A DNA stretch of 64,000 nucleotides from Bacteroidota bacterium. GTDB lineage: Bacteria > Bacteroidota > Bacteroidia > JABEUT01. The notes under the pieces were generated by a model. That model was not told where the DNA came from and ran no database searches. It was given only the letters and a program-made list of their open reading frames with translations. A program made the position numbers and the translations under genes. The stretch lies in contig JABDHI010000006.1 of NCBI GenBank assembly GCA_013285655.1, positions 933 to 64,932 on the forward strand. The letters are read 5' to 3'. Below, one piece after another: positions 8,071 to 30,619 of this stretch (its first letter is position 1; each line of letters opens with the position of its first letter).

Positions 8071-8127
8071 TGTTGAAAACTAACAGCACAAAATGTTTAT
8101 TAGTATTTAACATTGTGTTTACCTTTG
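8071..8127 (+). promoter_or_regulatory. conserved promoter block ending in a Bacteroidota -7 box (TACCTTTG)
   Basis: This 57-nt block aligns without gaps to 27069-27125 (blocks TGTTGAAAACTA, TGTTTATTAGTA and AACATTGTGTTTA.CTTTG are identical). A TAnnTTTG box lies at 8120-8127. Confidence 0.6.
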
Positions 8128-8238
8128 CAACGTCAAACAAACGCTGAATTTTGAATTCTAAATCTTAAATTTTGAATTGAAAACGGCGAACCACAGTACT
8201 CATTTAGAATTTAAAATTCAACATATAAAATTGCAGTT

Positions 8239-9339
8239 ATGGGAGCCATACCATTCAAACACTACTCGCTCGATGCACCCGATGCAGCCTGGGATGCAGA
8301 TGCCGAAATTGCCAAGGCCGGTACCGACGACCTGCGCGTTATGTGCGCCTGGGACGATGTTACCCGCCCTGAGCAGAAGAACGGCTACAAGCTGCCTCAC
8401 CACCGTGCCGATACATACCACACCAACCTCAAGGGCCTTATGGCCGCAGGCAATGCGCTGATGGGTGCACGTGGCGGCGTTGAAATACCGAAGTATGATT
8501 TAGATGCTGTGAAAGCGCATTTGCAAAAGCACTACCACGAGTTTGGCCGCACTGCTCCCTGGGAGAGCAAAGCCGAATGGCGCTGGTACCAAACCAAAAG
8601 CGCAGGCAACAACTCACTGAAAGATGTTGATACCACTGGCCGCACTGTTTGTGGATATTTTGCATCGTTCAACACCACGGACAGCGATGGCGATATGTTT
8701 GCACCCGGTTGCTTTGCCAAAAGCCTGAACGAAAACAGTAGTCGCATTATGCACCTGTTGCAACACAACACCCTGCAACCTATTGGCCGCCCCAGCTTGC
8801 TGAAAGAAGATAACACGGGTTTGTACTTCGAAACACCTATTGCTAAAACACAACTGGGCGATAATGTGTTACAACTTTACCGCGATGGTGTGTACAAGGA
8901 GCATAGCGTGGGCTTTGAGATGATAAACTCTTCAATCGAAGCCCTTCGACAAGCTCAGGGTGACCGTCATGTTGAGCCTGTCGAAACATCTGTAAATGTT
9001 ATTAAGGAGGCTAAGTTGTGGGAGGGCTCAACCGTTACCTGGGGAGCGAACCATAATACTCCGCTGGTTGGCATAAAATCAAATTACTCACTGCCCAATA
9101 CTCACTACTCACATCTAACATCACAGAATATTCTCGATGAGGCGCTGGAGCGCAGTTCGCTTATTTACAAGCAGCTGCACCGCGGCAACCTACACGATGA
9201 TACCTATACACTTTTAGAGATTGAGCTTAAGCAGTTACAGGCTCTTTTGGCAGCAAGGCCGTGCGATCACACTTTGCCCGCTTCAAACGATGCTGAGCTT
9301 AATGTGCTCAATAAGATCAATTCTTTGCTTAAACAATAA
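8239..9339 (+). CDS. phage prohead (capsid maturation) protease, HK97/S78 family, with an N-terminal extra domain and C-terminal coiled coil
   Basis: Protease core GRTVCGYFASFNTTDSDGDMFAPGCF...LLQHN...HSVGF...AKLWEGSTVTWGANHNT. The N-terminal KLPHH domain is common in phage protease fusions. The gene lies directly upstream of the capsid gene. Confidence 0.85.
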   Translation: MGAIPFKHYSLDAPDAAWDADAEIAKAGTDDLRVMCAWDDVTRPEQKNGYKLPHHRADTYHTNLKGLMAAGNALMGARGGVEIPKYDLDAVKAHLQKHYHEFGRTAPWESKAEWRWYQTKSAGNNSLKDVDTTGRTVCGYFASFNTTDSDGDMFAPGCFAKSLNENSSRIMHLLQHNTLQPIGRPSLLKEDNTGLYFETPIAKTQLGDNVLQLYRDGVYKEHSVGFEMINSSIEALRQAQGDRHVEPVETSVNVIKEAKLWEGSTVTWGANHNTPLVGIKSNYSLPNTHYSHLTSQNILDEALERSSLIYKQLHRGNLHDDTYTLLEIELKQLQALLAARPCDHTLPASNDAELNVLNKINSLLKQ

Positions 9340-9361
9340 AGGCATTATGATGACTTGGATA

Positions 9362-9532
9362 TGGCACAATCCTTTGCATCTATGTGTCAAGTCCTATCAT
9401 CTTCTCTCATCACCTCACGTGCCATTACTAAGGCGCGCTGGTGTTTCGCGTTAGGGATTGCAGTGGAAAGCCCGGAGTGTAGCGAGGACTTGTAACGTAA
9501 AGCCCGACCCGAGGAACGAGGGGAACGCCCAA
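9362..9532 (+). repeat. AB-element, full copy
   Basis: TGGCACAATCCTTTGCATCTATGTGTCAAG...CACCTCACGTGCC, then GCGTTAGGGATTGCAGTGGAAAGCCCGGAG...GGGGAACGCCCAAG. Confidence 0.9.
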
Positions 9533-9634
9533 GTAATAATGAATAGATTCTTCGCTTCACTCAGAATGACAAAAACTGAGATTGCTTCGTGCCTCGCAAT
9601 GACGAATACAGAAATAACAATTAAACACTGAACA

Positions 9635-10861
9635 ATGGAAAACAAACAAGTGGACGCTATCGTGAAAGAAATAAGCGATAACATAAACACCATAAAAACA
9701 AAAGGCGAAGCGCAAGATGCGCAGCTAAAATCGCTCGATGCTAAAATAGCAGCCAACCAATGGCAGCTGGGCGATAAATACGAGGCCCTGCGTAAGGACT
9801 TCGACCAGATGACTGCTATGCTTAAAAAAGGCAGAATATTTGGTGCTGCCGACCGGGGCATGACCGTAAAAGACTTACTGCATGCACAACGCGAAGGACT
9901 GGCGAGTCTGAGGAATAAAGCCGGCATACCGGTAAGCTTGTCGTTAAAGGCAAATCATTTATTTACCAAAACGGCAGGTAATGTTACCGAAGGTAGCAAC
10001 CTAATAGGCACTGATGCTATACCACCTACCAGGCTCGAAGGTATTTATTCGCAACCCTTAAGGCCGGTGCATATACGCCAGTTTATGAATACTACGGCTA
10101 CCGATAGTAACCAGATACTGTTTAACCAGTTGACCGGTGAAAACGACGGAAGTGGAAGCACAGCAGAAGGAGCCAGTGCGGCACAGAGCGACTTTACCAT
10201 TACCGCGCAAGAAGTGGTAGTACGTAAGCTGAACACTTACCTTACCATTAGTAAAGAAATGATGGAAGATGCCGACTTTGTAGATAACTACATTAACACC
10301 CACGTAGCCGGCCGCTTGCTGATGCAGGAAGATACCCAGATAATATCGGGTAACAACAGTGCGCCAAATTTGCAGGGTATTGCACCTATTGCATCGGCGT
10401 ATGCTAACCCAATTATTCCGGGTGCTACACCAAGCAGCATTAACTATTACGATGTGCTGCACCAGGCTGTTACCCAGGCTCGCGTGTTGTACTACACACC
10501 AAACTATATTATCATTCACCCGAACGATTATAACGCATTGGTGTTAAGCCGCGATAGTTATGGCCGTTACCAGTTTCCGCAAATGATAAGCGGAGCACCG
10601 GGCACCTTCTTTATTAACGGTGCGCAGGTTATTGCTAACACGGCTATGACACAGGGTTACTTCCTTGTCGGCGATTTTCAACTGGGTGCTACCCTTGCTT
10701 ACCGCGACGAGATAAACGTAACCTTCAGTAATCAGCACGTAGACAACTTTGTAAAGGGGTTTATTACTGTGCTTGTTGAAGAACGCCTTGCCAATGTGGT
10801 TTACCGACCAACCGCATTTGTGTATGGCAACTTTAACCAGGCGGAAGCTTCTGGCTCGTAA
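9635..10861 (+). CDS. phage major capsid protein, HK97 fold
   Basis: 408 aa with an N-terminal coiled-coil delta-like region, then sequence typical of HK97-family MCPs (LNTYLTISKEMMEDADFV...ISGNNSAPNLQGI...YIIIHPNDY). It follows the prohead protease. Confidence 0.85.
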   Translation: MENKQVDAIVKEISDNINTIKTKGEAQDAQLKSLDAKIAANQWQLGDKYEALRKDFDQMTAMLKKGRIFGAADRGMTVKDLLHAQREGLASLRNKAGIPVSLSLKANHLFTKTAGNVTEGSNLIGTDAIPPTRLEGIYSQPLRPVHIRQFMNTTATDSNQILFNQLTGENDGSGSTAEGASAAQSDFTITAQEVVVRKLNTYLTISKEMMEDADFVDNYINTHVAGRLLMQEDTQIISGNNSAPNLQGIAPIASAYANPIIPGATPSSINYYDVLHQAVTQARVLYYTPNYIIIHPNDYNALVLSRDSYGRYQFPQMISGAPGTFFINGAQVIANTAMTQGYFLVGDFQLGATLAYRDEINVTFSNQHVDNFVKGFITVLVEERLANVVYRPTAFVYGNFNQAEASGS

Positions 10862-10975
10862 AGCAAAGCCCCATCCCAACCTTCCCCATTAGGGAAGGAA
10901 ACAGAGCTTGCTAAAGTCCTCCCCAATGGGGAGGATTTAGGAGGGGCTTCTATTTAGTTCTTTCATGGTTGGTTT

Positions 10976-11014
10976 GGCCGGGCTTTGTTCTTAGGGACGG
11001 GTCCGGCTTTTTTT
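10976..11014 (+). terminator. rho-independent terminator after the capsid gene
   Basis: GGCCGGGC...GTCCGGC stem followed by TTTTTTT. Confidence 0.55.
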
Positions 11015-11173
11015 ACAATTAAGAATTAAAAATTAAGAATTACGAATGAAAACGAGGGCGGTTTTTGTCCCCCGCTGGAGGGGGAAGTGGGAGGATTGAA
11101 CAAGCAAGCCGGTATTTTGCAGAAACAAGGATTTTTCGTAAATTTGTATAGGTTACTCATTAATTATATAGCC

Positions 11174-11410
11174 ATGACTACACTGCAAATAAAGAATAAG
11201 CTTATCAGTACCATAAAATCGGTTAAAGACCCTGATGTATTGGAAGATTTGTACAGGTTATTGAATATTGAGACAGAGGATATTGAGAAGCTGAAAATCC
11301 CTGCGCGTGTAAAGAAAGCAATTGCTCAAGGACAAAAAGATATTAAAGAAGGCAGACATTATACAAATAAGCAGGCAGACGATCAGATTGACCGATGGCT
11401 AAAGAAATAG
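11174..11410 (+). CDS. type II antitoxin (partner of the ParE/RelE toxin)
   Basis: 78-aa acidic protein (MTTLQIKNKLISTI...) that overlaps the toxin start by 16 nt. The ORF-track start at 11087 lies in repeat DNA, so the internal ATG at 11174 is preferred. Confidence 0.6.
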   Translation: MTTLQIKNKLISTIKSVKDPDVLEDLYRLLNIETEDIEKLKIPARVKKAIAQGQKDIKEGRHYTNKQADDQIDRWLKK

Positions 11411-11697
11411 TATGGTCGGCACTGGCAATACACGACCGTAAGAATATTTTATCGTACTGGATAAACAGGAACCACTCTAAGTTATATAGTATTAAACTGG
11501 ATATGCTTATTAGAGAAGCTGTAAAACTAATTGCAGAATACCCGTTTATTGGTAAGCCAACAGATGCCAGAGGGATTAGAGCTAAGAAGGTGCGCGATTA
11601 TTTTATTCTTTATACAGTAAAAGAGAATCAGATACAGATATTAACTATATGGGATACCCGCCAAGACCCACAAGACCTAAAAGAAAGATTGAAGTAA
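11395..11697 (+). CDS. type II toxin, RelE/ParE family
   Basis: 100 aa with family-typical layout (EIVWSALAIHDRKNILSYW...YPFIGKPT...YFILYTVKENQIQILTIWDTRQDP). Confidence 0.75.
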   Translation: MAKEIVWSALAIHDRKNILSYWINRNHSKLYSIKLDMLIREAVKLIAEYPFIGKPTDARGIRAKKVRDYFILYTVKENQIQILTIWDTRQDPQDLKERLK

Positions 11698-11705
11698 TTT
11701 GAGGT

Positions 11706-12641
11706 ATGAGGAAACCACTGTATATCATCTTAATATCTGTTTGCCTGTTGATACTTATTGCGTGCCAGCAAAAAAATGGGTTCACTAATAAAAATGAAGC
11801 TAAAAATGATATGGTTAATGGACTCAAAGAAGGTAAGTGGATTGAATATTGGGATTATAATCATTATGTAACTGATACTAATAAGGGATATGAAATATAC
11901 ATACTCACGATTTATAAAAAGGGTAAGCCATATGGTATAGTTCGAGAATATTATAAATGCGGAAAAATAGAACGAGAGATCCCTTATGTAAATGGAGTCG
12001 AGAAGTGGTATAGTGAAAACGGGTATGAGTGGGGTGAATACCCAACAATAAACGGTAAAAGGGATGGAATCGCTAAAGAGTATTTTAAGGGTATGTTAAC
12101 AAAGGAAGCCCCTTTTAATAATGGTAAGTTAAATGGAGTGGTAAAGGAATATATCGAAAGTGATAAAGTAATTAAAGAAACTCCTTATTCTAATGATGAT
12201 AAAAATGGAATTGAAAAATGGTATTACGAAAATGGTAAAGTTTTTAAAGTAGTTCCATATAAGAATGGGGTAAAGGATGGAATTGAAATTGTTTACGGTG
12301 AGAAAGGAGAAATTGAATCTAAGCATTCGTTTAAAAGGGGTTGCGAATACGGAACGGGAATAGATTATTATTACAATGGAAAGATTATGTATGAAGTGCC
12401 TTATATTATAGATAGTACAGTTGGAAGCTTTAGAAGTGAAATAAATGGCATTAAGAAAACCTATTATGAAAGTGGTGAGTTGAACTTTGAGATGCCTTTT
12501 ACCAAGGGTAACTTAAATGGAGAAGTAAAAGAATATTATAAAAATGGGAAATTAAAGTCTGAAACTAATTATAAGAATGGGGTGTTTGGTATACAAGGAA
12601 AAACAAAACACTATGACGAAATCGGTAACGAAATAAAATGA
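11706..12641 (+). CDS. YwqK/MORN-variant repeat lipoprotein, paralog 1
   Basis: Lipoprotein signal (LLILIAC), the shared N-terminal motif GFTNKNEAKNDMVNGLKEGKWIEY, and repeated NGxxxGxxKEYYxxGKL units. Confidence 0.8.
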   Translation: MRKPLYIILISVCLLILIACQQKNGFTNKNEAKNDMVNGLKEGKWIEYWDYNHYVTDTNKGYEIYILTIYKKGKPYGIVREYYKCGKIEREIPYVNGVEKWYSENGYEWGEYPTINGKRDGIAKEYFKGMLTKEAPFNNGKLNGVVKEYIESDKVIKETPYSNDDKNGIEKWYYENGKVFKVVPYKNGVKDGIEIVYGEKGEIESKHSFKRGCEYGTGIDYYYNGKIMYEVPYIIDSTVGSFRSEINGIKKTYYESGELNFEMPFTKGNLNGEVKEYYKNGKLKSETNYKNGVFGIQGKTKHYDEIGNEIK

Positions 12642-13372
12642 CCAAACCACTGTATATAACCTTACTTATTGCATTGCTTATAACCAGCTGCAAGCAAACG
12701 GCCAAAGAGTATTACAGTAACGGCATGCTAAAAAGTGAAGTTCTGCTATCGAATGGCGTAAAAGATGGAATAATGAAGGTATATACTGCTGATGGTAAGT
12801 TAAGAGCTGAGATACCTTATGTAGATGGAAAAGAAGAAGGTATTGGCAAATGGTATTGGGATGATGGCAAGATACAGATACTAATGCCTAAGAAAAACAA
12901 TAAAGCAAACGGAATAGTGAAGTGGTATTTCGAGAATGGAAACCTGAGCCAGGAGATACCCGACAGCGATGGTGTGAAGAACGGATTGGAGAAGCGCTAT
13001 TACGAGAGCGGTAAACTATTGGCAGAAACCATGTACAGCAACGGCGTTGAAAATGGTCCGGAGCGGGAGTATTTCGAGAATGGTAAATTGAAATTTGAGG
13101 TTACCAATAAGATGGGTAAGCGAGCCGGGCTATGCAAAACCTATTACGAAACCGGGTTTATAACAGAGACACCTTACATTGATAATGAAATAAGCGGTAC
13201 CGAGAAGATATATGATGCCAGTGGCAAGTTATTTCAGGAGACTGTATTTAAGGATGGTGATAAGGTTAGCGAAAAGTATTATAAAGATGGAAAGCTGGAT
13301 AGCGAAACCGATTACAGTAATGGTACAGAGACCGATCATAAAGAGTTTGATAAAAACGGCAATGAAAAGTAA
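12638..13372 (+). CDS. YwqK/MORN-variant repeat lipoprotein, paralog 2
   Basis: ATGA overlap with paralog 1, lipoprotein signal (LLITSC), and repeated G-x-K-x-G-x-x-K-x-Y-Y-x-x-G-K-L units. Confidence 0.8.
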   Translation: MTKPLYITLLIALLITSCKQTAKEYYSNGMLKSEVLLSNGVKDGIMKVYTADGKLRAEIPYVDGKEEGIGKWYWDDGKIQILMPKKNNKANGIVKWYFENGNLSQEIPDSDGVKNGLEKRYYESGKLLAETMYSNGVENGPEREYFENGKLKFEVTNKMGKRAGLCKTYYETGFITETPYIDNEISGTEKIYDASGKLFQETVFKDGDKVSEKYYKDGKLDSETDYSNGTETDHKEFDKNGNEK

Positions 13373-13494
13373 AATGAAACAGCCCTCTCCAAACCTCTCC
13401 CTCGAGGGAGAGGTTTTTGGAAAGAAAACTCCTTTAGTCCTCCCCTCTAGGGGAGGATTTAGGCGGGGCGAATTGGTAACGAAATAAAATAATT

Positions 13495-13872
13495 ATGAAG
13501 CTAAAGATAATAATACCTTGTTTTTTACTTCTTATGCCTGTTTTGGTGGTTGGACAAAAGGCCCACCATACCAAATATTTATATGCTGACAGTGGCTTTA
13601 CCAATAAAGCAGAGGCCAAGAACGTTACTATAAATGGTTTGAAGGATGGGAAATGGATGGAGTATTATAATCTTGAAACTAAAACATCAAATTCTAATCC
13701 TTATGAAACAACCATAAACGTACCAACTGCAGATACTAATGCCATGTATTATGATTTGGGTGTTTACAAAGCCGGCAAGCTAAATGGGGTAGTAAGATAC
13801 TACGAGAATAAAAGCAATAAGTATATGTTTTGGCATTATTTTATCAATGGTAAAAAAATAGAAAGCCGGTAA
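13495..13872 (+). CDS. YwqK/MORN-variant repeat protein, short/truncated paralog 3
   Basis: Signal peptide plus DSGFTNKAEAKNVTINGLKDGKWMEY; only 125 aa, so it may be a truncated copy. Confidence 0.6.
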   Translation: MKLKIIIPCFLLLMPVLVVGQKAHHTKYLYADSGFTNKAEAKNVTINGLKDGKWMEYYNLETKTSNSNPYETTINVPTADTNAMYYDLGVYKAGKLNGVVRYYENKSNKYMFWHYFINGKKIESR

Positions 13873-13956
13873 ATAAAGTAAAGCCTAAATGATAACCCTC
13901 GTTGACTACAATAACTTTTACGCTTCATACATGCGATATAAAATAATAAAATAACT

Positions 13957-14679
13957 ATGAAACTAAAAAAACTGATTACTTGCTCTTTATTACTTGCTCC
14001 TGCCTTTATGATGGCGCAGAAGCATATCCAACAACCACAATACCCCGATAGTGGCTTTATCAATAAAGCAGAGGCGAAGAACATAACCATAGATGGAAAA
14101 AAAGAAGGGATGTGGATCGATTATTTGGATTCATTGCGCAGACTTACTACAGATACCAATGCGCCGTATTATGCACTTAATGTATATAAGGCGGGTAAGT
14201 TTACTAAGCTTGAGCGCGGGTATTATAAAAGTGGAAAGTTGATGTTTCGCATACACTATGACAATGGCAGGGAAAATGGACGGGAAGAAAATTTTTATGA
14301 AGATGGGAAAGTAAGATCGGATGCTATGGTGATAAATGACACTTTGCATGGAACGGTTAAATTCTACTATCCTAATGGAAAAATGAAATCGCTTACTAAT
14401 TATTTTCACGGAATAAAAGTGGGAGAGGTTAAAGTTTATTATGAAAACGGCAATATACACCAGGAAGCTGAATATTCTGATGGTGTGCCGAATGGCACTG
14501 TTACCACATACTACGAAGATGGTAAGCTGAAAGATGTAGATACCTATGACAACGGTAATTTAAACGGGCTAAGCAAAATGTATTACGAAGATGGTAAGTT
14601 GGAACGTACAGTAAGTTATAACGAGGGTACACCGGGAGAAATTAAGAACTACGATGAAAACGGCAATGAAATAAAGTAG
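13957..14679 (+). CDS. YwqK/MORN-variant repeat protein, paralog 4
   Basis: Signal peptide, DSGFINKAEAKNITIDGKKEGMWIDY, MORN-like repeats, and C-terminal YDENGNEIK. Confidence 0.8.
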   Translation: MKLKKLITCSLLLAPAFMMAQKHIQQPQYPDSGFINKAEAKNITIDGKKEGMWIDYLDSLRRLTTDTNAPYYALNVYKAGKFTKLERGYYKSGKLMFRIHYDNGRENGREENFYEDGKVRSDAMVINDTLHGTVKFYYPNGKMKSLTNYFHGIKVGEVKVYYENGNIHQEAEYSDGVPNGTVTTYYEDGKLKDVDTYDNGNLNGLSKMYYEDGKLERTVSYNEGTPGEIKNYDENGNEIK

Positions 14680-14749
14680 CATGAATTGGCACATGAAACA
14701 TTGAAGTGTGTGCCATTATGTGCCAAAATTTAAACGAGCTAAAATAACT

Positions 14750-15220
14750 ATGAAACTAAAAGCAATAGTACTACCAGTATTTTTAATGGGTATCTCTGTA
14801 TCGGTGAAGGCCCAAAAGCATGCCCATACAGAAGCATACGATAGTGGCTTTACCAATAAAGCCGAAGCCAAAAACAAAATGGTGAATGGTAAAAAAGAAG
14901 GTAAGTGGGTGGAGGAATTTAAAAACACTGGAGATACTACAAAGCCAATTTATAGGTTAGCGGTTTATAAAAGTGGTAAGCTAAACGGCATTGCCAGGTA
15001 TTACTATGCTAATGGAACCGAATACGAAGAAGAAGCATACACCAATGGTACCAGGAATGGGGTTACTAAAGAATTTGATAGCCGTAAACACCTTGTAAAA
15101 GAAACTCCGTATATTAACGATACTATAAACGGAGTAGTTAAAGATTTTAATGCGGATGGAACACTTAAAAAAGAGACGTTGTATTATAAGGGGAAGGAAG
15201 GAATTTCGAAAAGCCACTAG
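14750..15220 (+). CDS. YwqK/MORN-variant repeat protein, paralog 5
   Basis: The internal ATG at 14750 gives signal peptide MKLKAIVLPVFLMGISVSVKAQ, followed by DSGFTNKAEAKNKMVNGKKEGKW. Confidence 0.75.
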   Translation: MKLKAIVLPVFLMGISVSVKAQKHAHTEAYDSGFTNKAEAKNKMVNGKKEGKWVEEFKNTGDTTKPIYRLAVYKSGKLNGIARYYYANGTEYEEEAYTNGTRNGVTKEFDSRKHLVKETPYINDTINGVVKDFNADGTLKKETLYYKGKEGISKSH

Positions 15221-15494
15221 GCCAATTAAGAATTAAAAATTAGTAATTAAGAATTGAGGAACAATGTTGAACCCAATAGTTTTAAGAGTCCCTTTAGGGG
15301 ATGGGATGAAAATGAAATACTTGATGAGAAGCTACACACATTTTTTCGACCTGTGTGCAATTGTGTGTAATGATAATTTATTAATGGAGTGAATGCTTTA
15401 CACAAATACCCTGTTTCGTGTAAAAATATGTAAAGTAAAAAGAAGTCATAAGTGGAAAGTTGTAAGTCGTTAGAGAAACAGTAAATTGTAGTTT

Positions 15495-15578
15495 GCGTTA
15501 GGGATAGAAGCGGTTACCCCGCAGCGCAGCGAGGAGTAAAAGCGGATAGCCCGACCGAGGAACGAGGGAACGCCCAAA
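15495..15578 (+). repeat. AB-element, module B only
   Basis: GCGTTAGGGATAGAAGCGGTTACCCCGCAGCGCAGCGAGGAGTAAAAGCGGATAGCCCGACC...GGGAACGCCCAAA. Confidence 0.9.
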
Positions 15579-15652
15579 TGAAATTAGAAATGAAAAGCTA
15601 AAAGTGAAAATTAAATAGGAAGGTCTTCGACAAGCTCAGACTGACAATATAT

Positions 15653-17230: not shown

Positions 17231-17277
17231 ATAGTGTAAATGGTGAGTTGTAAATGAAATATCACCTAATGTGGTTC

Positions 17278-17377
17278 GCGTTAGGGATTGTAGTGGAAAG
17301 CCCGGAGCATAGCGAGGATCCCGCAGCATTGCGGGACCCGACCCGTCCCGAGTACTCGGGAGAGGGGAACGCCCAAG
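17278..17377 (+). repeat. AB-element, module B only
   Basis: GCGTTAGGGATTGTAGTGGAAAGCCCGGAG...CCCGCAGCATTGCGGG...TCCCGAGTACTCGGGA...GGGGAACGCCCAAG. Confidence 0.9.
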
Positions 17378-19302: not shown

Positions 19303-19422
19303 GTCATTGCGAGGAACGAAGTTGTTTTTATAATCCCGACCAATTGTGGCGGGGCAATCTCAAAGCAAATACTCAGACTGCCACATCCGCCCCGAGCACT
19401 CGTGGCCGGACCCGCAGTGACG
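19303..19422 (+). repeat. C-element (~110-120 nt nested-hairpin repeat)
   Basis: The first ~60 nt are nearly identical to 27878-27940 (GTCATTGCGAGGAACGAAGTTGTTTTTATAATCCCGACCAATTGTGGCGGGGCAATCTCAA). The ends GTCATTGCGA / TCGCAGTGAC are inverted. Confidence 0.85.
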
Positions 19423-19448
19423 AGTTACTAACCACTAAAACCACTAAA

Positions 19449-20759
19449 ATGAAACTGACAATTCTTGTCTGTTCGCTGCAAAAGCGACTGACTTTGTTTG
19501 CAAACCTATGCGAACACCTACAAACCCAAGCCGATAAATACCCTAACCAGGTTGAACTGCTTTGGCTGGGCGATAACAAAACCATGAGCGTTGGCGAAAA
19601 ACGCAACAAGCTGTTAAGCCTGGCTAAAGGCGACTACGTTTGTTTTGTGGATGATGACGATTGGGTTCCCGATAACTATGTTGTTGAAATTATGAAGGGC
19701 ATAGAGCAGAAGCCCGATTGCGTTTGCTTTAATGCTATCTATACAGCAGATGGCACTTCGGTGGCTGTCGAATACAGTTTACAAAATTTATTGAATGTGG
19801 ATGAGCCCGGCAAACCACGCCTGCGTGTACCTAATCACTTAATACCTATTAAGCGAGAATATGCACTCAAAACCATGTTCCTCGAAAAAAGCTTTGGCGA
19901 AGATACCGACTATGGCTTGCGTGTTAGGCGTTTGCTAAAGACTGAATATCGCATTGAAAAGCCACTGTACCATTACCGGTTCTCGGCTGCTACCAGCGAA
20001 ACACACCGTTACTCACCAAAGTATAAAAAACCTAAACCAAGCCCCATGATAAAGATGGATGTGGTGATGGTGAGTGATGCAGGACTACAACCCGCAGCCC
20101 CCCTTAATACCCCCATTGGGGGGGAACAAGAAGTGATCGTTCCAAGCCAAGGCTCCCTCCACAATGGAGAGGGTTGGGGTGGGGCTGTTATGACTCAGGC
20201 GGCAATCAATAGTATTGCATCACCCGAGGTGAATGTAATAGTGTTGGAAAAGAGTGAACAGATACGCTATGCCAATGCCGATACTTATTTGCAAAGGCAT
20301 CCCTTCAATTATAACCAGTGCTTAAACAACGGTGCTACTATGGGTAATGCTGAGTTAATATGTTTTACCAATAACGATGTGGTGTTCCCTGATGAGTTTT
20401 TGCACAGCGTGCTGCAAATTATAAAAGATACCGGAGCCGATGTGCTATCGTTCGCTAACCAACATGGTTTCCTTCATCCTGAAATTATTAGCGGCTTTTG
20501 TTTTGTAATTACGCGCAAGGCCTATTATAAAATAGGTAAGCTAAAACAAGATTATCTTTTTTGGTGTGCCGATAATGTTACCAGCGAACAAATTAAGCAA
20601 CATGGACTGAAAGAGGTTAAGAGTCCGTTGCGGGTTACGCACTTAACTTCGGTTACGCTTAAAAAGCTTCCGGCAGATTTGCGTGAGGCTTATACCCGCG
20701 ATTGTGTGAAAGCCTTTAATCGCGATTATAATCAGAATGTGTTGAACTTAGGAAAGTAG
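19449..20759 (+). CDS. two-domain glycosyltransferase (GT2-like + GT2-like), with a repeat-derived in-frame insert
   Basis: The internal ATG at 19449 gives MKLTILVCSLQKR...YVCFVDDDDW (DxD). The second domain is MIKMDVVMVS...ELICFTNNDVVF. An insert at 20095-20185 is made of palindromic repeat words. Confidence 0.7.
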   Translation: MKLTILVCSLQKRLTLFANLCEHLQTQADKYPNQVELLWLGDNKTMSVGEKRNKLLSLAKGDYVCFVDDDDWVPDNYVVEIMKGIEQKPDCVCFNAIYTADGTSVAVEYSLQNLLNVDEPGKPRLRVPNHLIPIKREYALKTMFLEKSFGEDTDYGLRVRRLLKTEYRIEKPLYHYRFSAATSETHRYSPKYKKPKPSPMIKMDVVMVSDAGLQPAAPLNTPIGGEQEVIVPSQGSLHNGEGWGGAVMTQAAINSIASPEVNVIVLEKSEQIRYANADTYLQRHPFNYNQCLNNGATMGNAELICFTNNDVVFPDEFLHSVLQIIKDTGADVLSFANQHGFLHPEIISGFCFVITRKAYYKIGKLKQDYLFWCADNVTSEQIKQHGLKEVKSPLRVTHLTSVTLKKLPADLREAYTRDCVKAFNRDYNQNVLNLGK

Positions 20760-20877
20760 TCGTTAGTCAATGATTGTCATTGCGAGGAACGAAGCAATCC
20801 CCTTGGGGCTCATCAGGATCTTTGAAAAATAAATAGAGAACCGAATAATCTCAACGCAAATAAAGTTGATTTGGTTT

Positions 20878-21059
20878 TGGCACAATCCTTTGCAACTATG
20901 TGTCAAGTTCTAACATCGAATCTCTTCACCTCACGTGCCGTTACCCTTGTGCAATGGTAGTTTGCGTTAGGGATAGTAGCGGTTACCCCGCAGCGCAGCG
21001 AGGAGTAAAAGCGAATAGCCCGACCCGTCCCGAGTACTCGGGAGAGGGGAACGCCCAAA
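20878..21059 (+). repeat. AB-element, full copy (reference copy)
   Basis: TTGGCACAATCCTTTGCAACTATGTGTCAAG...CACCTCACGTGCC, a linker, then GCGTTAGGGATAGTAGCGGTTACCCCGCAGCGCAGCGAGGAGTAAAAGCGAATAGCCCGACCCGTCCCGAGTACTCGGGAGAGGGGAACGCCCAAA. Confidence 0.9.
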
Positions 21060-21810: not shown

Positions 21811-22010
21811 TTGGGCGTTTCCCCAAGCTGCGCAAGGGGTCGGGCTATTCGCTGCAAGTCCTCGTTTCACTGCGGGCTTTCCGCTGCTATCTCTAACGCA
21901 AACAGCCCTAACGACTAATGACTGTCGACTAACTACTGCAAAGCTACGGCACGTGAGGTGAAGAGATTCGATGATAGGAATGGACACATAGATGCAGAGT
22001 ACTGTGCCAA
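21811..22010 (-). repeat. AB-element, full copy with an expanded linker
   Basis: Modules B and A in reverse orientation. The linker carries extra CGACTAATGACTGTCGACTAAC word repeats. Confidence 0.9.
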
Positions 22011-22089
22011 AGAAAGTGAATAGTGAAAAACTAAAAATGAAAATATAACTCACGACTGTTGACTAGCGACTAATCACTATCTTTGCGGC

Positions 22090-23046: not shown

Positions 23047-23159
23047 TCCTGAGTTATAAAATGGTATCCGACGAAATGGAACTCTACAAAAATATAATTT
23101 GTTTGCAATTAAGCAACAGATAAAAATCAATAAAACGAAGATTGTTAGGTGTTTAAGCC

Positions 23160-23975: not shown

Positions 23976-24101
23976 AGTTGCAAATATAGGATGATAGCAT
24001 TAAGTTTTAAAACTCTCAACCACTTATACCCCCAACCCCCTAAAGGGGGCAGAATGCACGAATGGTGTTAAATCCCCTTTAGGGGTTTGGGGTAAATAAA
24101 C

Positions 24102-24870
24102 CTAATACGTAATATTAGGTTTTATGCGCCCGAAGCTATACGACAGAGTAGCAGTAAGATTACCGTATTCCATAACAGACTCGCTGCGGTTGGTGGATAC
24201 CTGGTCGGGGTTATTAGGTGAAATGATAGTAGTAGTAGTATGGAAAACAAAAGCGCTATAAAGTACATCGGCATAAAGCATTAGGGCTAAATGCGTATTT
24301 AGCTTTTGTCCAATACCTATACCCGGGCTCATGGCAATACCTGTTGATGTTGAAGAGGTAGTACTTACTTTGTAAGCCTGGTAGCCGTTGCCATTGGGTA
24401 TATTAATACTATAGTTAAGTGCGGGCAGGGCACATATCATTGGGCCAATCATTACCCTTACCTCAAAAGCAGTGCGGGTAGTGCGTTGTGGTAGTTTAAT
24501 ATTTAAACCGCCTAGTAAGTAATAAATGTTGTAATGTGCTGTGTTGCCTCCGCCAAAGGTTTTGGTTTTGTTAGTATCAAAGCCGAGTGGGGCATAAGCC
24601 GAAAGATTAAAACCCGGAGCGCTATAGCCAAGCACTGCCGCAATGCCCCAGTACGATTCTTTAATAGCAAATAATGCTGATGCACTTGCTGTTGGCCCGT
24701 TGGTTCCCCAAAAAGGCCGAACATCGGTGGTGGGATTTTTGCTCAGGTTCTCGCCATAACCTACACCGACAGATATGAGTGAATACATATAATGCGGCCG
24801 ACTGCTATCGGCTTGGCTAAAGGCAAATGAACTTATTACTAGTGCTGCTGCAAGTAGAAGGTGTTTCAAG
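24102..24870 (-). CDS. probable outer-membrane beta-barrel protein
   Basis: A TTG start at 24870 gives MKHLLLAAALVISSFAFSQ. The sequence has alternating Gly/aromatic strands and a C-terminal ...LSYSFGRI. A TACATTTG -7 box lies at 24887-24894 (rc). The track's N-terminal extension runs into repeat DNA. Confidence 0.5.
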
Positions 24871-25035
24871 CGGCGGTGTTTAATAACAAATGTACAAATA
24901 TGGTGAATACCCCAATCACCTGCACCCCCATCCCCCTGAAGGGGGTAAAATGCACGCACTGTGCTAAAGCCCCTTTAGGGGTTTGGAGTAATAGGGTGGT
25001 TTTTAGTAATATTGTATATAACAAACGAATAAAGG

Positions 25036-25827
25036 ATGATCAGAAAAAGACTACTACTATTTAGTGTTGCCTGTTCGCTTATGGCATGTAACACAAACCA
25101 GCAAGGTAAATCGGTAAGCAATGCAAAGCCCGGCGATACAACCAAAGCGTCTGTGGTTGTTCCGGTAGACCCGAAGATTGCAAAGTTGCTGGCCCACTTT
25201 AAAGACAATGTTGTTTTTCCATTACGTATGGATTCAGCTTATATTGACAATGTTGTAAAGTATGATTCGCTGGGAGCCAATGAAGTTAAGATGCTTGCGG
25301 TGCAATGGTATAAAGATAAAACCATGGATGATGATCATGGATATCTTACTGGTTTTTATAAAATAGATTCGTTAAAGACAAATCACAAATATGCCAGGTA
25401 TGTCGATTCGCTTCAGCCGGGCGATACTAAGCTATCGAATGCGTATGGCTTGCAAAAGTTAAAGCTGAAGGATAGCACACTATTATTGGTATGGGCATTT
25501 ACATATTCGAGCTACGAAGCCGACCCGGTGTTTGGTGGTACCAATATTTACGGCACGGTTTTAAATAACAATAATATTGGTATTACATATTTGCTTGCCC
25601 AAAGCAGCAGTGCTGCCGATCCTCCAAGCGGTACCGAAGGAATGCTTACCGATAGCATAACTAGCGATGGTAAGTTCTTTTACAGGCAAAGAAGCATACA
25701 AGAAGATTATGATAGCATGAAGGGCCAGGTGTACCAAAGTTTTTTTGAATATGATATAAGCCATGGCAAGACCAGCGCGAAGGCGAACAAAGACGGCGGT
25801 AGCTGGGAAATAAAATTGAAGGAGTAG
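25036..25827 (+). CDS. hypothetical lipoprotein
   Basis: Lipobox LFSVACSLMAC; 263 aa; no family recognised. Confidence 0.55.
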   Translation: MIRKRLLLFSVACSLMACNTNQQGKSVSNAKPGDTTKASVVVPVDPKIAKLLAHFKDNVVFPLRMDSAYIDNVVKYDSLGANEVKMLAVQWYKDKTMDDDHGYLTGFYKIDSLKTNHKYARYVDSLQPGDTKLSNAYGLQKLKLKDSTLLLVWAFTYSSYEADPVFGGTNIYGTVLNNNNIGITYLLAQSSSAADPPSGTEGMLTDSITSDGKFFYRQRSIQEDYDSMKGQVYQSFFEYDISHGKTSAKANKDGGSWEIKLKE

Positions 25828-26180
25828 AGTTGGTGAAATGCCTCCCGAATTTCGGTTTGCAAGTATAGGCCATGTATAAATCAAAAAGTGTTAAAAAAAC
25901 AGAAAAATTTGGGGCTGTTAGTAAATAAACCGATGCCTAACTATTGACAAACGGTTTTTGGTGGTGTACTTTGGCATTAAATATTTCTACAGAAGCTTCT
26001 GGAAATATAAAACGGAATACAAACCAATAAACCTACCCGGGGCAAAGGCAACGGGAAGCTAAAATTGAGGAATACCCGACGGGGTAAACCGGAAACAGAG
26101 AGGCATGAAGAACCCTGTTATTCATGTGGCAGGAAAATAAGTGCAATGCCTTAAAATAGAGAGCACTAAACAAATTAGTT

Positions 26181-26219
26181 AAAAAAGTAAGGGTTGCCCT
26201 GTAAGGCAGCCCTTTTTTA
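26181..26219. terminator. bidirectional rho-independent terminator
   Basis: AAAAAAG-TAA-GGGTTGCC-CTGTAA-GGCAGCCC-TTTTTT: an 8-bp stem with an A-run on one side and a T-run on the other, 110 nt downstream of the TIR gene. Confidence 0.6.
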
Positions 26220-26326
26220 TTTGTGCTAAAGAAGATTATTGTCTAAATCATTCCCATCGTTTGGCTTGTTGATAGTTATGTGAAATGGGTTAGCATTACT
26301 CGGACCTGGTGTAATAACTGAGGGGT

Positions 26327-26974
26327 TTATAGAAGATTATGATTTAATATGTTATGATAGTTAGTATGTTCATTTAAGGAGGCAACAGTGTAAAGGGGAG
26401 CATTATTTACTTGTTGTGAATCAGTACGCACTATTTGAAGGATTTCCTCTAGTATATCTCTGTCAGATCTCTCTGGTTCTTTTGTTGTCTCGGTTTCCTT
26501 TATCGCAGACAATTCTTTTTCAAATGGCGCCCATAATGCGTCAAATAAATCATTTAGGGTTTGGTCAGGAATAGGTTTTTCTTTATTGTCTGATAATTTG
26601 ATGTTTATAGTATGAATGAGTTTTTTTATGTCAGCCTTTGAGAATATAGTATGTTGAAATTGCCCAAGTGGAGGTTTTACATCACTGGGCGTCATATCTA
26701 GAAGAAAAGTACATACGTGGGCGTCTTGTGTCTTCGATAGCGCTCCAGCTTCAAAAAGTATCCATTCGGAAGATGTGTTTTCTTTGTTTAAGCATAATAT
26801 GCCAATTTTAGTGTTCTCTAATTCTACTCTTATTGTATCTATACCTCTCGACCCTTTTTTTATTTCTGTTGAAATAAAAGGCTCTACCGCTTGAATAACT
26901 TTTTCTAGAAATTTCTTCAATGCCTCAGCAGTTGCTTTGCTTTTTTCCCCTGACCAACTAAAAAATACTTTCAT
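26327..26974 (-). CDS. TIR-like domain protein (ThsB/COG4271-like N-terminus) with an uncharacterised C-terminal region
   Basis: N-terminus MKVFFSWSGEKSKATAEALKKFL...IGILCLNKENTSSEWILFEAGALSK matches the bacterial TIR-like pattern (F-x-SWSG...I-x-C-x-T/N-x-EN...W-I-x-FEAGALSK). The gene sits in a visibly AT-rich islet. Confidence 0.65.
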   Translation of the reverse strand: MKVFFSWSGEKSKATAEALKKFLEKVIQAVEPFISTEIKKGSRGIDTIRVELENTKIGILCLNKENTSSEWILFEAGALSKTQDAHVCTFLLDMTPSDVKPPLGQFQHTIFSKADIKKLIHTINIKLSDNKEKPIPDQTLNDLFDALWAPFEKELSAIKETETTKEPERSDRDILEEILQIVRTDSQQVNNAPLYTVASLNEHTNYHNILNHNLL

Positions 26975-27063
26975 GATTATGAATTTGTTTCTTTAAATGT
27001 AGTAATAATTTTGAAAGCCCAATGTTAGTGTGTCATGTTACTCTTCTGTGTAATATTTTTTTT

Positions 27064-27125
27064 CGACCTGTTGAAAACTACATAACTATTTTGTTTATTA
27101 GTAGTAAACATTGTGTTTATCTTTG
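27064..27125 (+). promoter_or_regulatory. conserved promoter block (CGACCTGTTGAAAAC box + TATCTTTG -7 box)
   Basis: Positions 27069-27125 align without gaps to 8071-8127. The box TTCGACCTGTTGAAAAC recurs inverted at 42052-42072. A TAnnTTTG box lies at 27118-27125. Confidence 0.6.
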
Positions 27126-27222
27126 TGCCATAATTAGTACATAGTATTGGGTAATGAGTATAGAGATATAAAAAGCTCTTACTGAATCTCACTTCTCAAT
27201 ACTCACTACTCAATACCAAAAC

Positions 27223-27831
27223 ATGGCACTTACCGAATTAAAAATAGTAACACCTCCGGCGACTGAGTTGGCTCTTGCCACCGTCAAGAGTTATTTGCGC
27301 GTTGATTTTACCGACGACGATACCACTCTCGGTTTGTTGATTCAATCAGCGCGAGAAAGAGCAGAGCAATACTGCAACCGCTCATTTATAACCCAGACGC
27401 TGGAGGCATACTACGATAAAATAGAAAAGAACTTCACCCTGCCACGTGCGCCCATACAAAGTGTAAGCACCGTTAAACTTATTTACCTGAACGAGGTAAG
27501 TACGCTTACCCAAAATGCCGACTACTATGTTATGGGGAACCAGGATCAATGGTTGACTATTACAGCCACTACGTATAACCTGCCTCCCGGCTTTTCTCCC
27601 GGCGATGATTTAAGTAGGTATCACCTTGATGTAACCTATACTGCCGGTTATGGCAGTTCATGGACGAGTGTACCCATGGGCATACAAGAAGCTATTATGA
27701 AAATGGTTGGTGCCGCTTATGAAGTACGTGAAGATGTTGCACAACTCAGTAATAAAGGCATAAGCAATCTTATGGAGATACCCAATGATGCAAAAAGCCT
27801 TTTGAATGCATACAGAGTAGTTCCTTTATAA
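27223..27831 (+). CDS. phage head-tail connector (gp6-like / DNA-packaging) protein
   Basis: N-terminal signature LALATVKSYLRVDFTDDDTTLGLLIQSARERAEQYCNRSFITQT, typical of the gp6-like head-tail connector family. Confidence 0.75.
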   Translation: MALTELKIVTPPATELALATVKSYLRVDFTDDDTTLGLLIQSARERAEQYCNRSFITQTLEAYYDKIEKNFTLPRAPIQSVSTVKLIYLNEVSTLTQNADYYVMGNQDQWLTITATTYNLPPGFSPGDDLSRYHLDVTYTAGYGSSWTSVPMGIQEAIMKMVGAAYEVREDVAQLSNKGISNLMEIPNDAKSLLNAYRVVPL

Positions 27832-27877
27832 TTAAAAATGAAAAATTACGAATTACGAATGAAAGCAACAAAAGATC

Positions 27878-27987
27878 GTCATTGCGAGGAACGAAGTTGT
27901 TTTTATAATCCCGACCAATTGTGGCGGGGCAATCTCAATGCAAACGCTAAGGCTGCCACGCCCGCAAAAGCCGGGTTCGCAGTGACG
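27878..27987 (+). repeat. C-element (second copy)
   Basis: See 19303-19422. This copy is itself nested between the inverted word repeats AATTACGAATTACGAAT (27846-27862) and ATTCTTAATTCTTAAT (27996-28011). Confidence 0.85.
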
Positions 27988-28019
27988 GGAATTTTTTCTT
28001 AATTCTTAATTGAAATAAT

Positions 28020-28391
28020 ATGATAGGAACACTTCGATATAAAATAAACGTACATCAATTATCTTCCACCACCGATGGCGCCGGAGCTTTAAATGACCAG
28101 TCGATTGGTACCACTAGCCCTCAAAAATCATTGTTTTCTTCAGTTCGTACAATTTCTACACAAATGCATATGTACAATCGAGGAGTAGATATTACATCCT
28201 CACTAACTCAAAATTCAGTCGCAATACCAAATCTCGTAATGTATGCACTAGGTGCTAATAACGCTGGAAGTATTGGTGCACCGACCTCTGGGCAAATTGG
28301 GATTTCATATGCCGGTGCAGGTAATATTAACCAAGTAACTTTATATAATGTAATCCAATCTTTTGCCATTAGAATTGGATTTAATGTGTGA
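28020..28391 (+). CDS. possible phage head-closure / head-tail adaptor protein (only the N-terminal motif is recognisable)
   Basis: MIGTLRYKINVHQLSSTTDGAGALND resembles the (I)G-x-LRH-R-I-x-I start of SPP1 gp16-type head-closure proteins, and the gene follows the connector. The remainder is unrecognised and AT-richer. Confidence 0.35.
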   Translation: MIGTLRYKINVHQLSSTTDGAGALNDQSIGTTSPQKSLFSSVRTISTQMHMYNRGVDITSSLTQNSVAIPNLVMYALGANNAGSIGAPTSGQIGISYAGAGNINQVTLYNVIQSFAIRIGFNV

Positions 28392-28503
28392 AGTATGAGA
28401 ATTAAAAAAAATACTTAAGTATTGCTAATTATTTCTAGTGAGTAGTTCATTATATATATGTTAGATATATGAGTATTTTTGAAAACTAATTTGAAAAAAA
28501 CTG

Positions 28504-29637
28504 ATGGAGGAATTAAACGGTAGAACCAAGTATTTTTCGCAACTAGATGGCCTTAGGTTTATCGCTATATTGGCTGTGATGCAATGTCATTGGATTCGGA
28601 CTCCTCTTCCCGCTACAGGATTTTCTGGTGTTAACTTATTTTATGTTATTAGTGGATTTCTAATTACAAGAATATTATTAATGAGTAAGGAAGATAATAA
28701 AGGGCTTGGAATATCATTAAAGCGGTTTTATATACGTAGAACCTTGAGGATATTTCCTATTTATTATCTGTCTATTTTGGTATTGTTTATATTGAATATA
28801 CCTGGGGCCAGACAGGATATTTATTGGTTAATAACTTATACTTTCAATATAAAACTAGTGTTGCTTAATGCTTATGTGCATGGCGAAAATTATGGCTTCT
28901 ATGCTCATTTCTGGAGTTTATGTGTTGAAGAGCAGTTTTACTTCTTGTTCCCAATTTTGATATTACTTATTCCTAAAGCATATATGAAGCGGTTTTTGAT
29001 TGGTGTTATTTGCATTGGGTTTTTTACGAGATTTTTCTTAATGTTTCAATCAAACCGATCATTTGAAACAGGTCTTTTACCTGATTGTTTAGATTCCTTT
29101 GGGTTAGGTGCTTTATTGGCCTTTTATATTTTAAACGAGCCTGAAGCATTAAAGAAAATCATGATGAACAATCTTATATTTATAATCAGTATGATTTCTT
29201 ATATAGCTTTAGTAGTTATTGATTACGAGTGCTTTTCTATTTTTAATCCAGTTTATTGCTTATTAGATAGATTTTTGTTTTCGTTATGCTGTTTTTGGAT
29301 TGTTGGGAAGGCTTCTTTGGGTATGCATAAAGGATTAATGAAGGGATTTCTTGAAAATAAAGCAGTCGTTTACTTAGGTAAGATTAGTTATGGAATATAT
29401 GTGTATCATGTGTTTGTGGAAGAATTTTTAAATCATGCACTTTACCCAATTTACAGAAAGTGTCCAGTCTTTCTTCAATATTATTGGAGGGTACTTATAA
29501 AGTATGGACCTGACAATAATAGTAATTGGGTATACAGATTTTTAGGATACTCTATAGTGACTGTAATAGTTGCATCAATATCTTGGTACGTAATAGAAAA
29601 GCCAATAATCAAGTTAAAAGATAAGTATGCTAAGTAA
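28504..29637 (+). CDS. acyltransferase family 3 (OafA/YrhL-like O-acyltransferase), integral membrane
   Basis: YFSQLDGLRFIAILAVMQCHW start and about 10 hydrophobic helices across 377 aa. Confidence 0.85.
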   Translation: MEELNGRTKYFSQLDGLRFIAILAVMQCHWIRTPLPATGFSGVNLFYVISGFLITRILLMSKEDNKGLGISLKRFYIRRTLRIFPIYYLSILVLFILNIPGARQDIYWLITYTFNIKLVLLNAYVHGENYGFYAHFWSLCVEEQFYFLFPILILLIPKAYMKRFLIGVICIGFFTRFFLMFQSNRSFETGLLPDCLDSFGLGALLAFYILNEPEALKKIMMNNLIFIISMISYIALVVIDYECFSIFNPVYCLLDRFLFSLCCFWIVGKASLGMHKGLMKGFLENKAVVYLGKISYGIYVYHVFVEEFLNHALYPIYRKCPVFLQYYWRVLIKYGPDNNSNWVYRFLGYSIVTVIVASISWYVIEKPIIKLKDKYAK

Positions 29638-29714
29638 ACATTCCGCATAGTAATCTGTAAATTCCTTTTCCCTTTTTGTTTTTACACCACTTCAACCACT
29701 CAATCCTATGAATC

Positions 29715-30029
29715 ATGGAACTCGAATCAGTTTTATTAAAAGAAATTCGTGCTAACAGGCAAGCAAGTGCTGAAGAGCATGCTGCACTTAAGGAATTAGT
29801 GCAAGATCAAGCAATTGTTATTAATGAGATAAAAGAAGACTTACGTGGCAATAAAGAGCGTGGTATTGATGGGCTTATTTATACGGTGAGGAAACATAAC
29901 AAGCTTCTTAGGCCAATTGAATTGTTAAATCAATACCCAAAAATTTCAATTGTCGCTTTTTTTATTGTGGCTCATATTCTGGCATATGCTTCATTTAAAG
30001 GCATTGATAAACTACTTACATTATTTTAA
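29715..30029 (+). CDS. hypothetical coiled-coil protein with one C-terminal TM helix (holin-like by position only)
   Basis: 104 aa with TM helix ISIVAFFIVAHILAYASF. It lies immediately upstream of the endolysin. No family recognised. Confidence 0.4.
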   Translation: MELESVLLKEIRANRQASAEEHAALKELVQDQAIVINEIKEDLRGNKERGIDGLIYTVRKHNKLLRPIELLNQYPKISIVAFFIVAHILAYASFKGIDKLLTLF

Positions 30030-30127
30030 ATAGAAATAGTGGGTACATAGTATTGAGTCTTAGTACATAAGGTTCTTTATCTATAAAGCAATGCTCAATA
30101 CTCACTACCCATTACTCAATACTCATT

Positions 30128-30619
30128 ATGGATATTACCAAAGCATTTACCGTACTTCAACAGCTTGAAGGTGGCGATAAAGTAACCAATATTACGGGAG
30201 ACTTAGGCGGCCTAACCAAATATGGTATTAGCCAGGCTTCGCACCCAGGCCTTGATATAGCAAATTTAACAGCCGACCAGGCCCAGGCTATTTATCAAAC
30301 CCAATACTGGCATACGGCTGGCTGTGATCAGCTTAAGCCCGATCTGCAATATATTCATTTCGATACTGCCGTTAATATGGGTGTTGGAATGGCTATAAAG
30401 TTGCTGCAAAAAGCAAGCGGAGTTGCTGAAGATGGTGTTTTAGGGCCGAATACTATAAATGCAAGTAATACTATATCTGCTGAAGCATATTTGCTTACCA
30501 GGTTAATGCATTATAATGCTATTATAGCCAACGATGCCAACCAGTATAAGTTTTGCAGGGGCTGGACAAATAGAATAGCCACCTTGTTTGGTATGAGCAG
30601 GAATGGAGAGCTTATATAG
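30128..30619 (+). CDS. GH108-family lysozyme (N-acetylmuramidase) with a PG_binding_3-like C-terminal half; phage endolysin type
   Basis: LQQLEGGDKVTNITGDLGGLTKYGISQ (EGG catalytic motif, GG-x-T-x-YGI), followed by GVAEDGVLGPNTINA. Confidence 0.8.
   Translation: MDITKAFTVLQQLEGGDKVTNITGDLGGLTKYGISQASHPGLDIANLTADQAQAIYQTQYWHTAGCDQLKPDLQYIHFDTAVNMGVGMAIKLLQKASGVAEDGVLGPNTINASNTISAEAYLLTRLMHYNAIIANDANQYKFCRGWTNRIATLFGMSRNGELI

Follow-up and report, generated by a model that had tools for sequence, protein, structure and literature searches.

A dispersed, probably domesticated set of phage head genes in a Bacteroidota genome

Cryptic and defective prophages, such as PBSX-like elements and the remnants in E. 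coli K-12, are marked by incomplete gene sets, deletion junctions and foreign insertions. Capsid-forming phage-inducible chromosomal islands (cf-PICIs) carry head-morphogenesis genes (protease, major capsid protein (MCP), connector and the small terminase subunit TerS) without tail genes, and encapsulins are HK97-fold shell proteins encoded in cellular genomes. Gene transfer agents (GTAs) can be divided over several chromosomal loci: RcGTA of Rhodobacter capsulatus occupies at least five, hundreds of kb apart, and VSH-1 of Brachyspira two (PMC5026251), and in FpGTA of Faecalibacterium about 125 kb separate the two operons (PMC12946183). Few GTAs have been described, most of them in Alphaproteobacteria and none in Bacteroidota, a phylum without an entry among the characterised GTAs listed in a 2026 survey (PMC12946183). 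Here we analyse 64,000 nt of contig JABDHI010000006.1 from a Bacteroidota genome (the window, meaning that whole stretch), in which phage-derived head genes stand among host genes behind copies of one promoter block. We read the window as a tail-less representative of a structural gene set of phage origin that spans the lineage, is probably domesticated and co-regulated, has protease-MCP as its core and resembles a multilocus GTA.

The likeness to multilocus GTAs lies in phage-derived genes that appear chromosomally fixed and vertically inherited, with syntenic flanks (window, L010, L014 and L113) and host genes including TsaD between units, and that are under purifying selection at loci tens to hundreds of kb apart. 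The loci of multilocus GTAs are switched on together; in the window's family, the promoter block before the units is a sequence feature that may point to coordinated expression. Unlike in those agents, the core head-tail cluster of the window's family is itself split into units of 1-10 genes with one promoter block, cargo lies between MCP and connector, and a GT2 glycosyltransferase gene belongs to the head module; furthermore, the family's portal was not found in the related loci searched, and its tails are being lost in several lineages. The complete head, portal, packaging and tail set of a GTA is not present in the window, where the head-closure protein (HCP) is truncated and tail, portal and the large terminase subunit (TerL) are absent. 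Membership among the GTAs is not established.

Phage genes of the window and their dispersal in relatives

The phage-derived genes below were recognised by Pfam and PHROG profile scans of all open reading frames (ORFs) of at least 80 aa in the window, or by homology to genes of related phages.

8239..9339, + strand: intact S78 prohead serine protease, 366 aa (PF04586, E 2e-21; phrog_80, 4e-36)
9635..10861, + strand: HK97-fold MCP, 408 aa (PF05065, 5.5e-36)
19344..20759, + strand: GT2 glycosyltransferase (PF00535), a gene of the ancestral phage module
21109..21789, + strand: 226-aa ORF, homologous to the phage gene between GT2 and connector
27223..27831, + strand: intact gp6-like head-tail connector (adaptor), 202 aa (PF05135, 3e-13; phrog_442, 2e-24)
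30128..30619, + strand: intact endolysin with GH108 and PG_binding_3 domains (phrog_315, 3e-43)
41511..41900, - strand: orphan TerS-like gene, short and divergent, with no TerL after it

Profiles thus confirm the S78 protease with HK97-type MCP, the gp6-like connector and the GH108 endolysin named in the initial annotation, which had been made from the letters alone. Related siphovirus modules (L006, L007 and L008), with MCPs about 49% identical to that of the window, supply the reference order: TerS, TerL, portal, MuF, protease, MCP, a small gene, GT2 (~400 aa), a ~230-aa gene and the gp6 connector, followed by HCP, a gp10-like gene, tail tube, chaperones, tape measure protein (TMP) and distal tail genes, all in one block. 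Six window genes are 35-55% identical to their phage counterparts, and five of them stand in the same order. The protease is 53% identical over its full length to that of phage L006 and has catalytic motifs that are invariant among homologues; a sequence search with it against the PDB gave no match. The MCP has a region of ~125 aa ahead of its capsid domain that by its position resembles a delta domain, and its counterparts at 8 related loci are 89-93% identical to it. The connector is 53% identical to that of the related phages and 92-94% identical to those of L031 and L033, and an identical connector is recorded on a 68,820-nt contig. The reading of a TerS-like gene on the other strand held up through homology that is specific to position: the product shares 35% identity with that of the ORF immediately before TerL in phage L008 (E 3e-12) and 39% with the TerS of L115, and an internal gap shows in its alignment.

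Between MCP and connector, the initial annotation had seen nothing other than unrelated cargo. A ParE pair, MORN_2 proteins (six and one truncated paralogue rather than seven), a GNAT and a TIR protein are indeed there, but the label was rejected for GT2 and the 226-aa ORF, which occupy the same MCP-connector slots in related phages. The GT2 is 53% identical to the GT2 behind MCP in phages L006 and L008, and the 226-aa ORF is 42-45% identical to L006 8515-9207 and L008 12773-13450. Because both fill the same slots in the same order as in those phages, they are ancestral members of the module and not cargo. The 226-aa ORF had no match in Pfam, PHROG or PADLOC, and its AlphaFold2 single-sequence model was unusable (predicted local distance difference test score, pLDDT, 30). 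The TIR protein (26327-26974, - strand) matches the PADLOC model TIR-TM (E 5e-58) over positions 1-199 of 293, and may therefore be without the transmembrane part.

In at least 10 uncultured soil Bacteroidia genomes the set is split into TerS-TerL, protease-MCP, GT2, connector-tail and TMP units with host genes between them. An intact protease-MCP unit is present in clade A (L004/L005, L010, L012, L014, L016, L017, L018 and L032; MCP 89-99% identical) and in clade B (L023 and L114; MCP 71-75% identical). Upstream of this unit in L004, L010, L012, L014, L017, L018 and L114 there is no portal, TerL or MuF gene, nor a pseudogene trace of one. In the window, L010 and L014 alike, the protease follows TonB, w3494 and w5101. 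On the other side, the window and L113, a locus of the sister genome MAG4, share GT2, three minus-strand genes (w22564, w23160 and w24102), the connector, w30902 and PALP (cysteine synthase). Connector homologues of 76-94% identity are widespread, and in L031, L033, L021, L022/L023 and L114 the connector is followed by HCP, gp10, gp17, tail tube and chaperones, often with TMP and distal tail genes, cargo genes being interspersed in these units too.

Whether portal, TerL and tail genes stand directly outside the window, which would have refuted the initial proposal, was addressed indirectly, through relatives. In the one relative with readable context, TerS and TerL (L115) stand by themselves on the strand opposite to protease-MCP, ~112 kb away on the same contig (k141_2433878); their neighbours are a MORN gene, TolC/RND genes and tsaD, and they belong to no contiguous prophage. 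TerL homologues are placed on long contigs that would also carry protease-MCP (336,171, 346,668 and 135,911 nt), and connector homologues are likewise placed on the same long contigs as MCP.

Domain scans found no portal, terminase, tail or integrase domain in any window ORF of at least 80 aa, and tblastn of phage TerL, portal, MuF, gp10 and tail genes against the window, at E values up to 10, returned only the HCP N-terminus; the statement that portal, TerL, tail and integrase genes are missing from the window was correct. This absence bears on one alternative, a satellite of the cf-PICI type that would make its own heads and depend on a helper phage for tails and perhaps for packaging. A window with head genes, a TerS-like gene and no tail genes would fit such an element, but the window contains no integrase, no AlpA, no primase or other replication or regulation module and no portal of its own, and Rfam and tRNA scans of the window had no match. 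The phage-derived genes are neither compact nor mobile, occupying more than 33 kb with host genes between them, their position is syntenic across species, and close relatives encode tail modules of their own. For want of an integrase, replication genes and a portal, and given the fixed chromosomal position, the satellite was rejected and is given next to no weight.

Two minus-strand genes stand on the upstream side. The collagen-repeat protein at 5101-6420 has a weak match to a phage tail protein (phrog_26246, 4e-5), and L010 and L014 keep both it and its neighbour at 3494-5053 ahead of the protease. The pair may encode fibre-like parts of the element, or ordinary surface proteins.

The shared promoter block

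Three copies of the block were located in the window.

8069..8127, + strand: copy 1, ~110 nt upstream of the protease
27068..27125, + strand: copy 2, ~100 nt before the connector; in L031 this block stands ahead of the connector-tail unit
42005..42070, - strand: copy 3, upstream of the TerS-like gene, with a diverged 3' half

The block follows the pattern GTTGAAAAC-N14-TGTTTATTAG-TA-N3-AAYA-N3-TGTTTA-NN-TTTG, which contains a TGTTTA..TAAACA dyad and ends in TAnnTTTG, a motif we take to be the Bacteroidota -7 consensus. A degenerate core of 34 nt occurs exactly twice in the window (8094-8127 and 27092-27125) where none is expected, and the similarity reaches ~57-60 nt, so that the shared block of ~57 nt proposed at the outset is real and has a third, diverged copy before the TerS-like gene. 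Copies 2 and 3 both contain TTTTCGACCTGTTGAAAAC, and a TAttTTTG box closes copy 3. A sigma-70 promoter and terminator scan of the window performed no better than on shuffled sequence. The leaders of the connector (27126-27222) and of the GH108 endolysin (30040-30127) have the words GTACATAGTATTG and CTCAATACTCACTAC in common, and the endolysin leader is without the block itself.

The pattern was also scanned, with at most one mismatch, in ~305 kb of related loci that had been chosen independently of it. All matches stand before phage-derived units, namely protease (10 loci), the connector unit, TerS-TerL (L115), GT2 (L004, L016 and L018) and a TMP gene (L021), and in L113 the TMP remnant has a weaker match (2 mismatches) before it. 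Scanned for in metagenomes, the pattern turned up more protease units, one connector-to-tail unit (L031), the TerS-TerL pair of L029 and, in L027, a unit of small genes of unknown function. Each type of unit is thus preceded by the block in some genomes, and not every unit in every genome. This recurrence suggests that one regulator switches the dispersed units on together, and it makes the block a searchable tag for the remaining members, such as portal and regulator, in complete genomes.

The unit in L027 (2052-3083, - strand) comes from the same metagenome-assembled genome (MAG) as L014/L113, and a perfect copy of the block stands before its small genes, which encode a 30-aa membrane peptide and proteins of 65, 151, 239 and 213 aa, none of them with a window homologue. 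These genes are candidates for extra members of the regulon.

Selection, tail loss and the origin of the set

The head genes carry a strong signature of purifying selection. Pairwise ratios of nonsynonymous to synonymous divergence (dN/dS) are 0.047-0.058 for MCP at dS 0.96-1.56, 0.07-0.15 for the protease, 0.08-0.17 for GT2, with dS saturating, and 0.03-0.05 for the connector, and no copy of any of these genes has an internal stop. Synteny and dN/dS of the head genes, a check proposed together with the initial annotation, thereby gave a syntenic site in several species and a protease-MCP ratio of 0.05-0.15 at dS of about 1 or more. MAG4 provides an internal control, for between it and the window dN is 0.047 for MCP and 0.157 for the neighbouring cysteine synthase, while the truncated connector fragment of MAG4 has dN 0.50 and dN/dS 0.50. 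Protease-MCP thus remained under constraint in MAG4, where the connector-tail pathway was broken long ago. Relaxation is confined to that fragment and perhaps TerS.

Downstream of the connector, the window has lost what several relatives keep.

28020..28148, + strand: remnant of HCP, first 22-43 codons only (tblastn against HCP of L021, L022, L031 and L033; DNA alignment)
28150..30029, + strand: AT-rich foreign insert, GC ~0.32, in place of the HCP C-terminus and the tail module

The ORF at 28020-28391 had been proposed as a head-closure gene, which it is not. Only its first 22-43 residues match the HCP of relatives, the remainder is unrelated AT-rich sequence, and in a DNA alignment with a close relative the homology stops within the HCP ORF, where low-GC foreign sequence begins; the site is therefore a deletion or insertion junction. 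The AT-rich insert itself was correctly recognised, and it carries an acyltransferase_3 gene (28504-29637) and a 104-aa ORF. At its position relatives have HCP-gp10-gp17-tail tube-TMP, and the connectors of such relatives are 92-94% identical to the window's. In one relative, the fusion protein P0078 joins connector and endolysin.

We hold it fairly likely that the region is a chromosomal arm of a vertically inherited, phage-derived and dispersed gene set in a soil Bacteroidia clade. The donor would have been an HK97-like siphovirus of the order TerS-TerL-portal-MuF-protease-MCP-x-GT2-y-connector-HCP-gp10-...-tail, whose set would have been split into TerS-TerL, protease-MCP, GT2, connector-to-tail-tube and TMP-distal tail units, as much as 112 kb apart in one genome. 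A dyad promoter block of ~60 nt before each kind of unit would let one regulator act on the whole. The shared promoter would drive protease and MCP, giving HK97-type procapsids matured by cleavage of the N-terminal region, with GT2 perhaps glycosylating the shell. A full set would yield tailed particles of GTA type; the window's genome could make tail-less heads at most. Genes that are intact across related species behind copies of one promoter look as though they were kept for a purpose and are not junk, and the arrangement suggests co-regulation, particle formation and a benefit to the host. Of the proposal that the window holds a retained, co-regulated capsid gene set, the part that denied random junk stands, on synteny, low dN/dS and the recurrent block; the set is not complete or self-sufficient, its HCP being cut, its tail deleted and its TerS orphaned.

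An ordinary cryptic prophage in slow decay, without function for the host, would explain other features of the region. Its low dN/dS would date from an earlier phage phase or stem from repair through recombination with related phages during infection, and the block would be a phage late promoter. Truncations and junctions speak for decay (HCP remnant, orphan TerS, the connector and TMP remnants of MAG4, the P0078 fusion and the GT2 of L012), as do the foreign AT-rich DNA in place of the tail module, the mosaic identities of protease and MCP, and the low dS of MCP; the window shares its truncated genes and deletion junctions with the cryptic prophages described above. However, ~10 lineages have the same portal-less boundary at the syntenic site, with the block adjoining host genes, and in all of them genes of 1.1-1.2 kb are without a stop codon at dS of at least 1. 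MCP is more conserved than cysteine synthase where the connector has decayed (MAG4), TerS-TerL is intact as an isolated pair 112 kb off, and the related phages L006 and L008 lack the block. Unlike cryptic prophages, then, the window's family combines long-term synteny across species and an MCP dN/dS of ~0.05 with a repeated, unit-specific promoter and distant, intact packaging genes, and selection is not relaxed on protease, MCP, GT2 or connector. We regard simple decay as unlikely.

The connector raises the opposite alternative. Its dN/dS is 0.038 between the window and L033, the same as for the tail-bearing pair L033 and L031 (0.037), and from this lack of relaxation either the tail was lost recently or the tail module lies elsewhere in the genome. 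In the second case the window's genome might hold a fully functional multilocus GTA, with portal, TerL, intact HCP and tail elsewhere behind the block, and the HCP remnant would be a translocation scar. The dispersal of units in relatives agrees with this, as does a 404-aa TerL (P0110) that would lie, from its inferred placement, on the 135,911-nt contig with MCP and protease identical to those of the window. However, synteny of w30902 and PALP puts the ancestral place of the tail module here, where foreign DNA now lies, and MAG4 lost its module at the same place. A functional agent in this genome is accordingly quite improbable.

Several points weigh against a dispersed, domesticated set. All of the relatives are MAGs or metagenome contigs. 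Portal, which is indispensable for tailed or DNA-filled particles, was found in no related locus searched, and a portal search of IMG/VR with a two-phage alignment returned the query phage and distant phages only. At least three lineages lost the tail module by separate deletions, as in decay. That of the window runs from HCP codon ~22 onward; in MAG4 (L113) the connector passes into a chaperone remnant at residue 119, and of TMP the N-terminal 148 aa are left behind a block-like promoter; and in the P0078 lineage residues 1-165 of the connector have been joined to the C-terminal half of the GH108 endolysin. The GT2 of L012 is truncated, and the TerS of the window is divergent, with a dN/dS of 0.40 against L115. 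The dN/dS values are pairwise Nei-Gojobori estimates near saturation. Against L014, dS is 0.96 for MCP, 2.4 for the protease and 2.2-3.2 for flanking host genes, and the identities of protease and MCP rank the relatives differently; recombination or transfer, beside vertical descent, may therefore add to the conservation.

As to the low dS of MCP, possible causes are constraint on codon usage from high expression and recent recombination confined to MCP. In L012 (12709-14115), the N-terminal 114 residues of GT2 are fused, at a deletion junction, to a C-terminus with DUF7619 and Por_Secre_tail, the latter a sorting domain of the type IX secretion system (T9SS).

More tentatively, the dispersed set may be the first GTA-like viriform of Bacteroidota, its units of 1-10 genes scattered across more than 100 kb, its unit types carrying copies of one dedicated promoter-operator, and its protease-MCP(-GT2) core selected after loss of connector and tail; this we think possible and somewhat doubtful. 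Retention of that core after tail loss would mean that the cell uses an HK97 capsid in a way that needs no tail, for instance as a glycosylated protein shell or as a dominant-negative block to the assembly of related phages. Like an encapsulin, the window's MCP is an HK97-fold protein apparently without an adjacent portal, and protease-MCP outlasts connector and tail; unlike one, it matches PF05065 only, has an N-terminal region and a dedicated S78 maturation protease, and no cargo candidate for it was identified, in an analysis that did not include targeting peptides. The family would add to the GTAs a soil lineage and a phage head-tail operon dismantled and rewired unit by unit with a copied promoter. 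Recurrent tail loss beside an unbroken protease-MCP pair offers a natural experiment on why a non-viral capsid is kept, and bears on the origin of encapsulin-like shells from phage capsids.

Other features of the window

Two kinds of interspersed repeat, both resembling miniature inverted-repeat transposable elements (MITEs), lie among the phage-derived genes, and one copy of the first separates protease from MCP.

9344..9511: copy of a ~170-nt interspersed intergenic repeat, MITE-like, between protease and MCP (families D3, D6, D13, D15 and D17)

This ~170-nt repeat, MITE-like or similar to repetitive extragenic palindromic (REP) elements, has ~11 full or partial copies in the 64 kb and no Rfam match. 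The further direct copies lie at 7859-8040, 15484-15556, 17271-17318, 20860-21027, 39411-39645 and 46753-46912, and inverted partial copies at 1074-1150, 3402-3478, 21942-22018 and 48643-48719; portions of the repeat are translated as protein within an ORF of L021. The second element, of ~125 nt, occurs at 19303-19430 and 27878-28000 with an exact core of 44 nt and terminal inverted repeats GTCATTGCG...CGCAGTGAC. The true GT2 start is probably the ATG near 19461, since 19303-19346 are taken up by a MITE-like element; the ~125-nt element stands directly upstream of this start and of the ORF with the HCP remnant.

Directly upstream of the TerS promoter copy, a second ParE-like toxin and a small upstream partner are encoded at 42084-42607 (- strand). 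The antitoxin-like ORF at 42362-42607 weakly resembles that of the first ParE pair (11087-11410), a likeness that came from tblastn, as a 26% match to the corresponding L028 region. Further along, a 142-nt direct repeat of 96% identity (43190-43331 and 43970-44111) surrounds a DUF5615/PIN-like gene (43623-43973), and may mark a small insertion or a duplicated junction. Unrelated to the phage set, a two-module nonribosomal peptide synthetase of 2346 aa (50533-58226, - strand; C-A-T-C-A-T-TE) adjoins a 4'-phosphopantetheinyl transferase.

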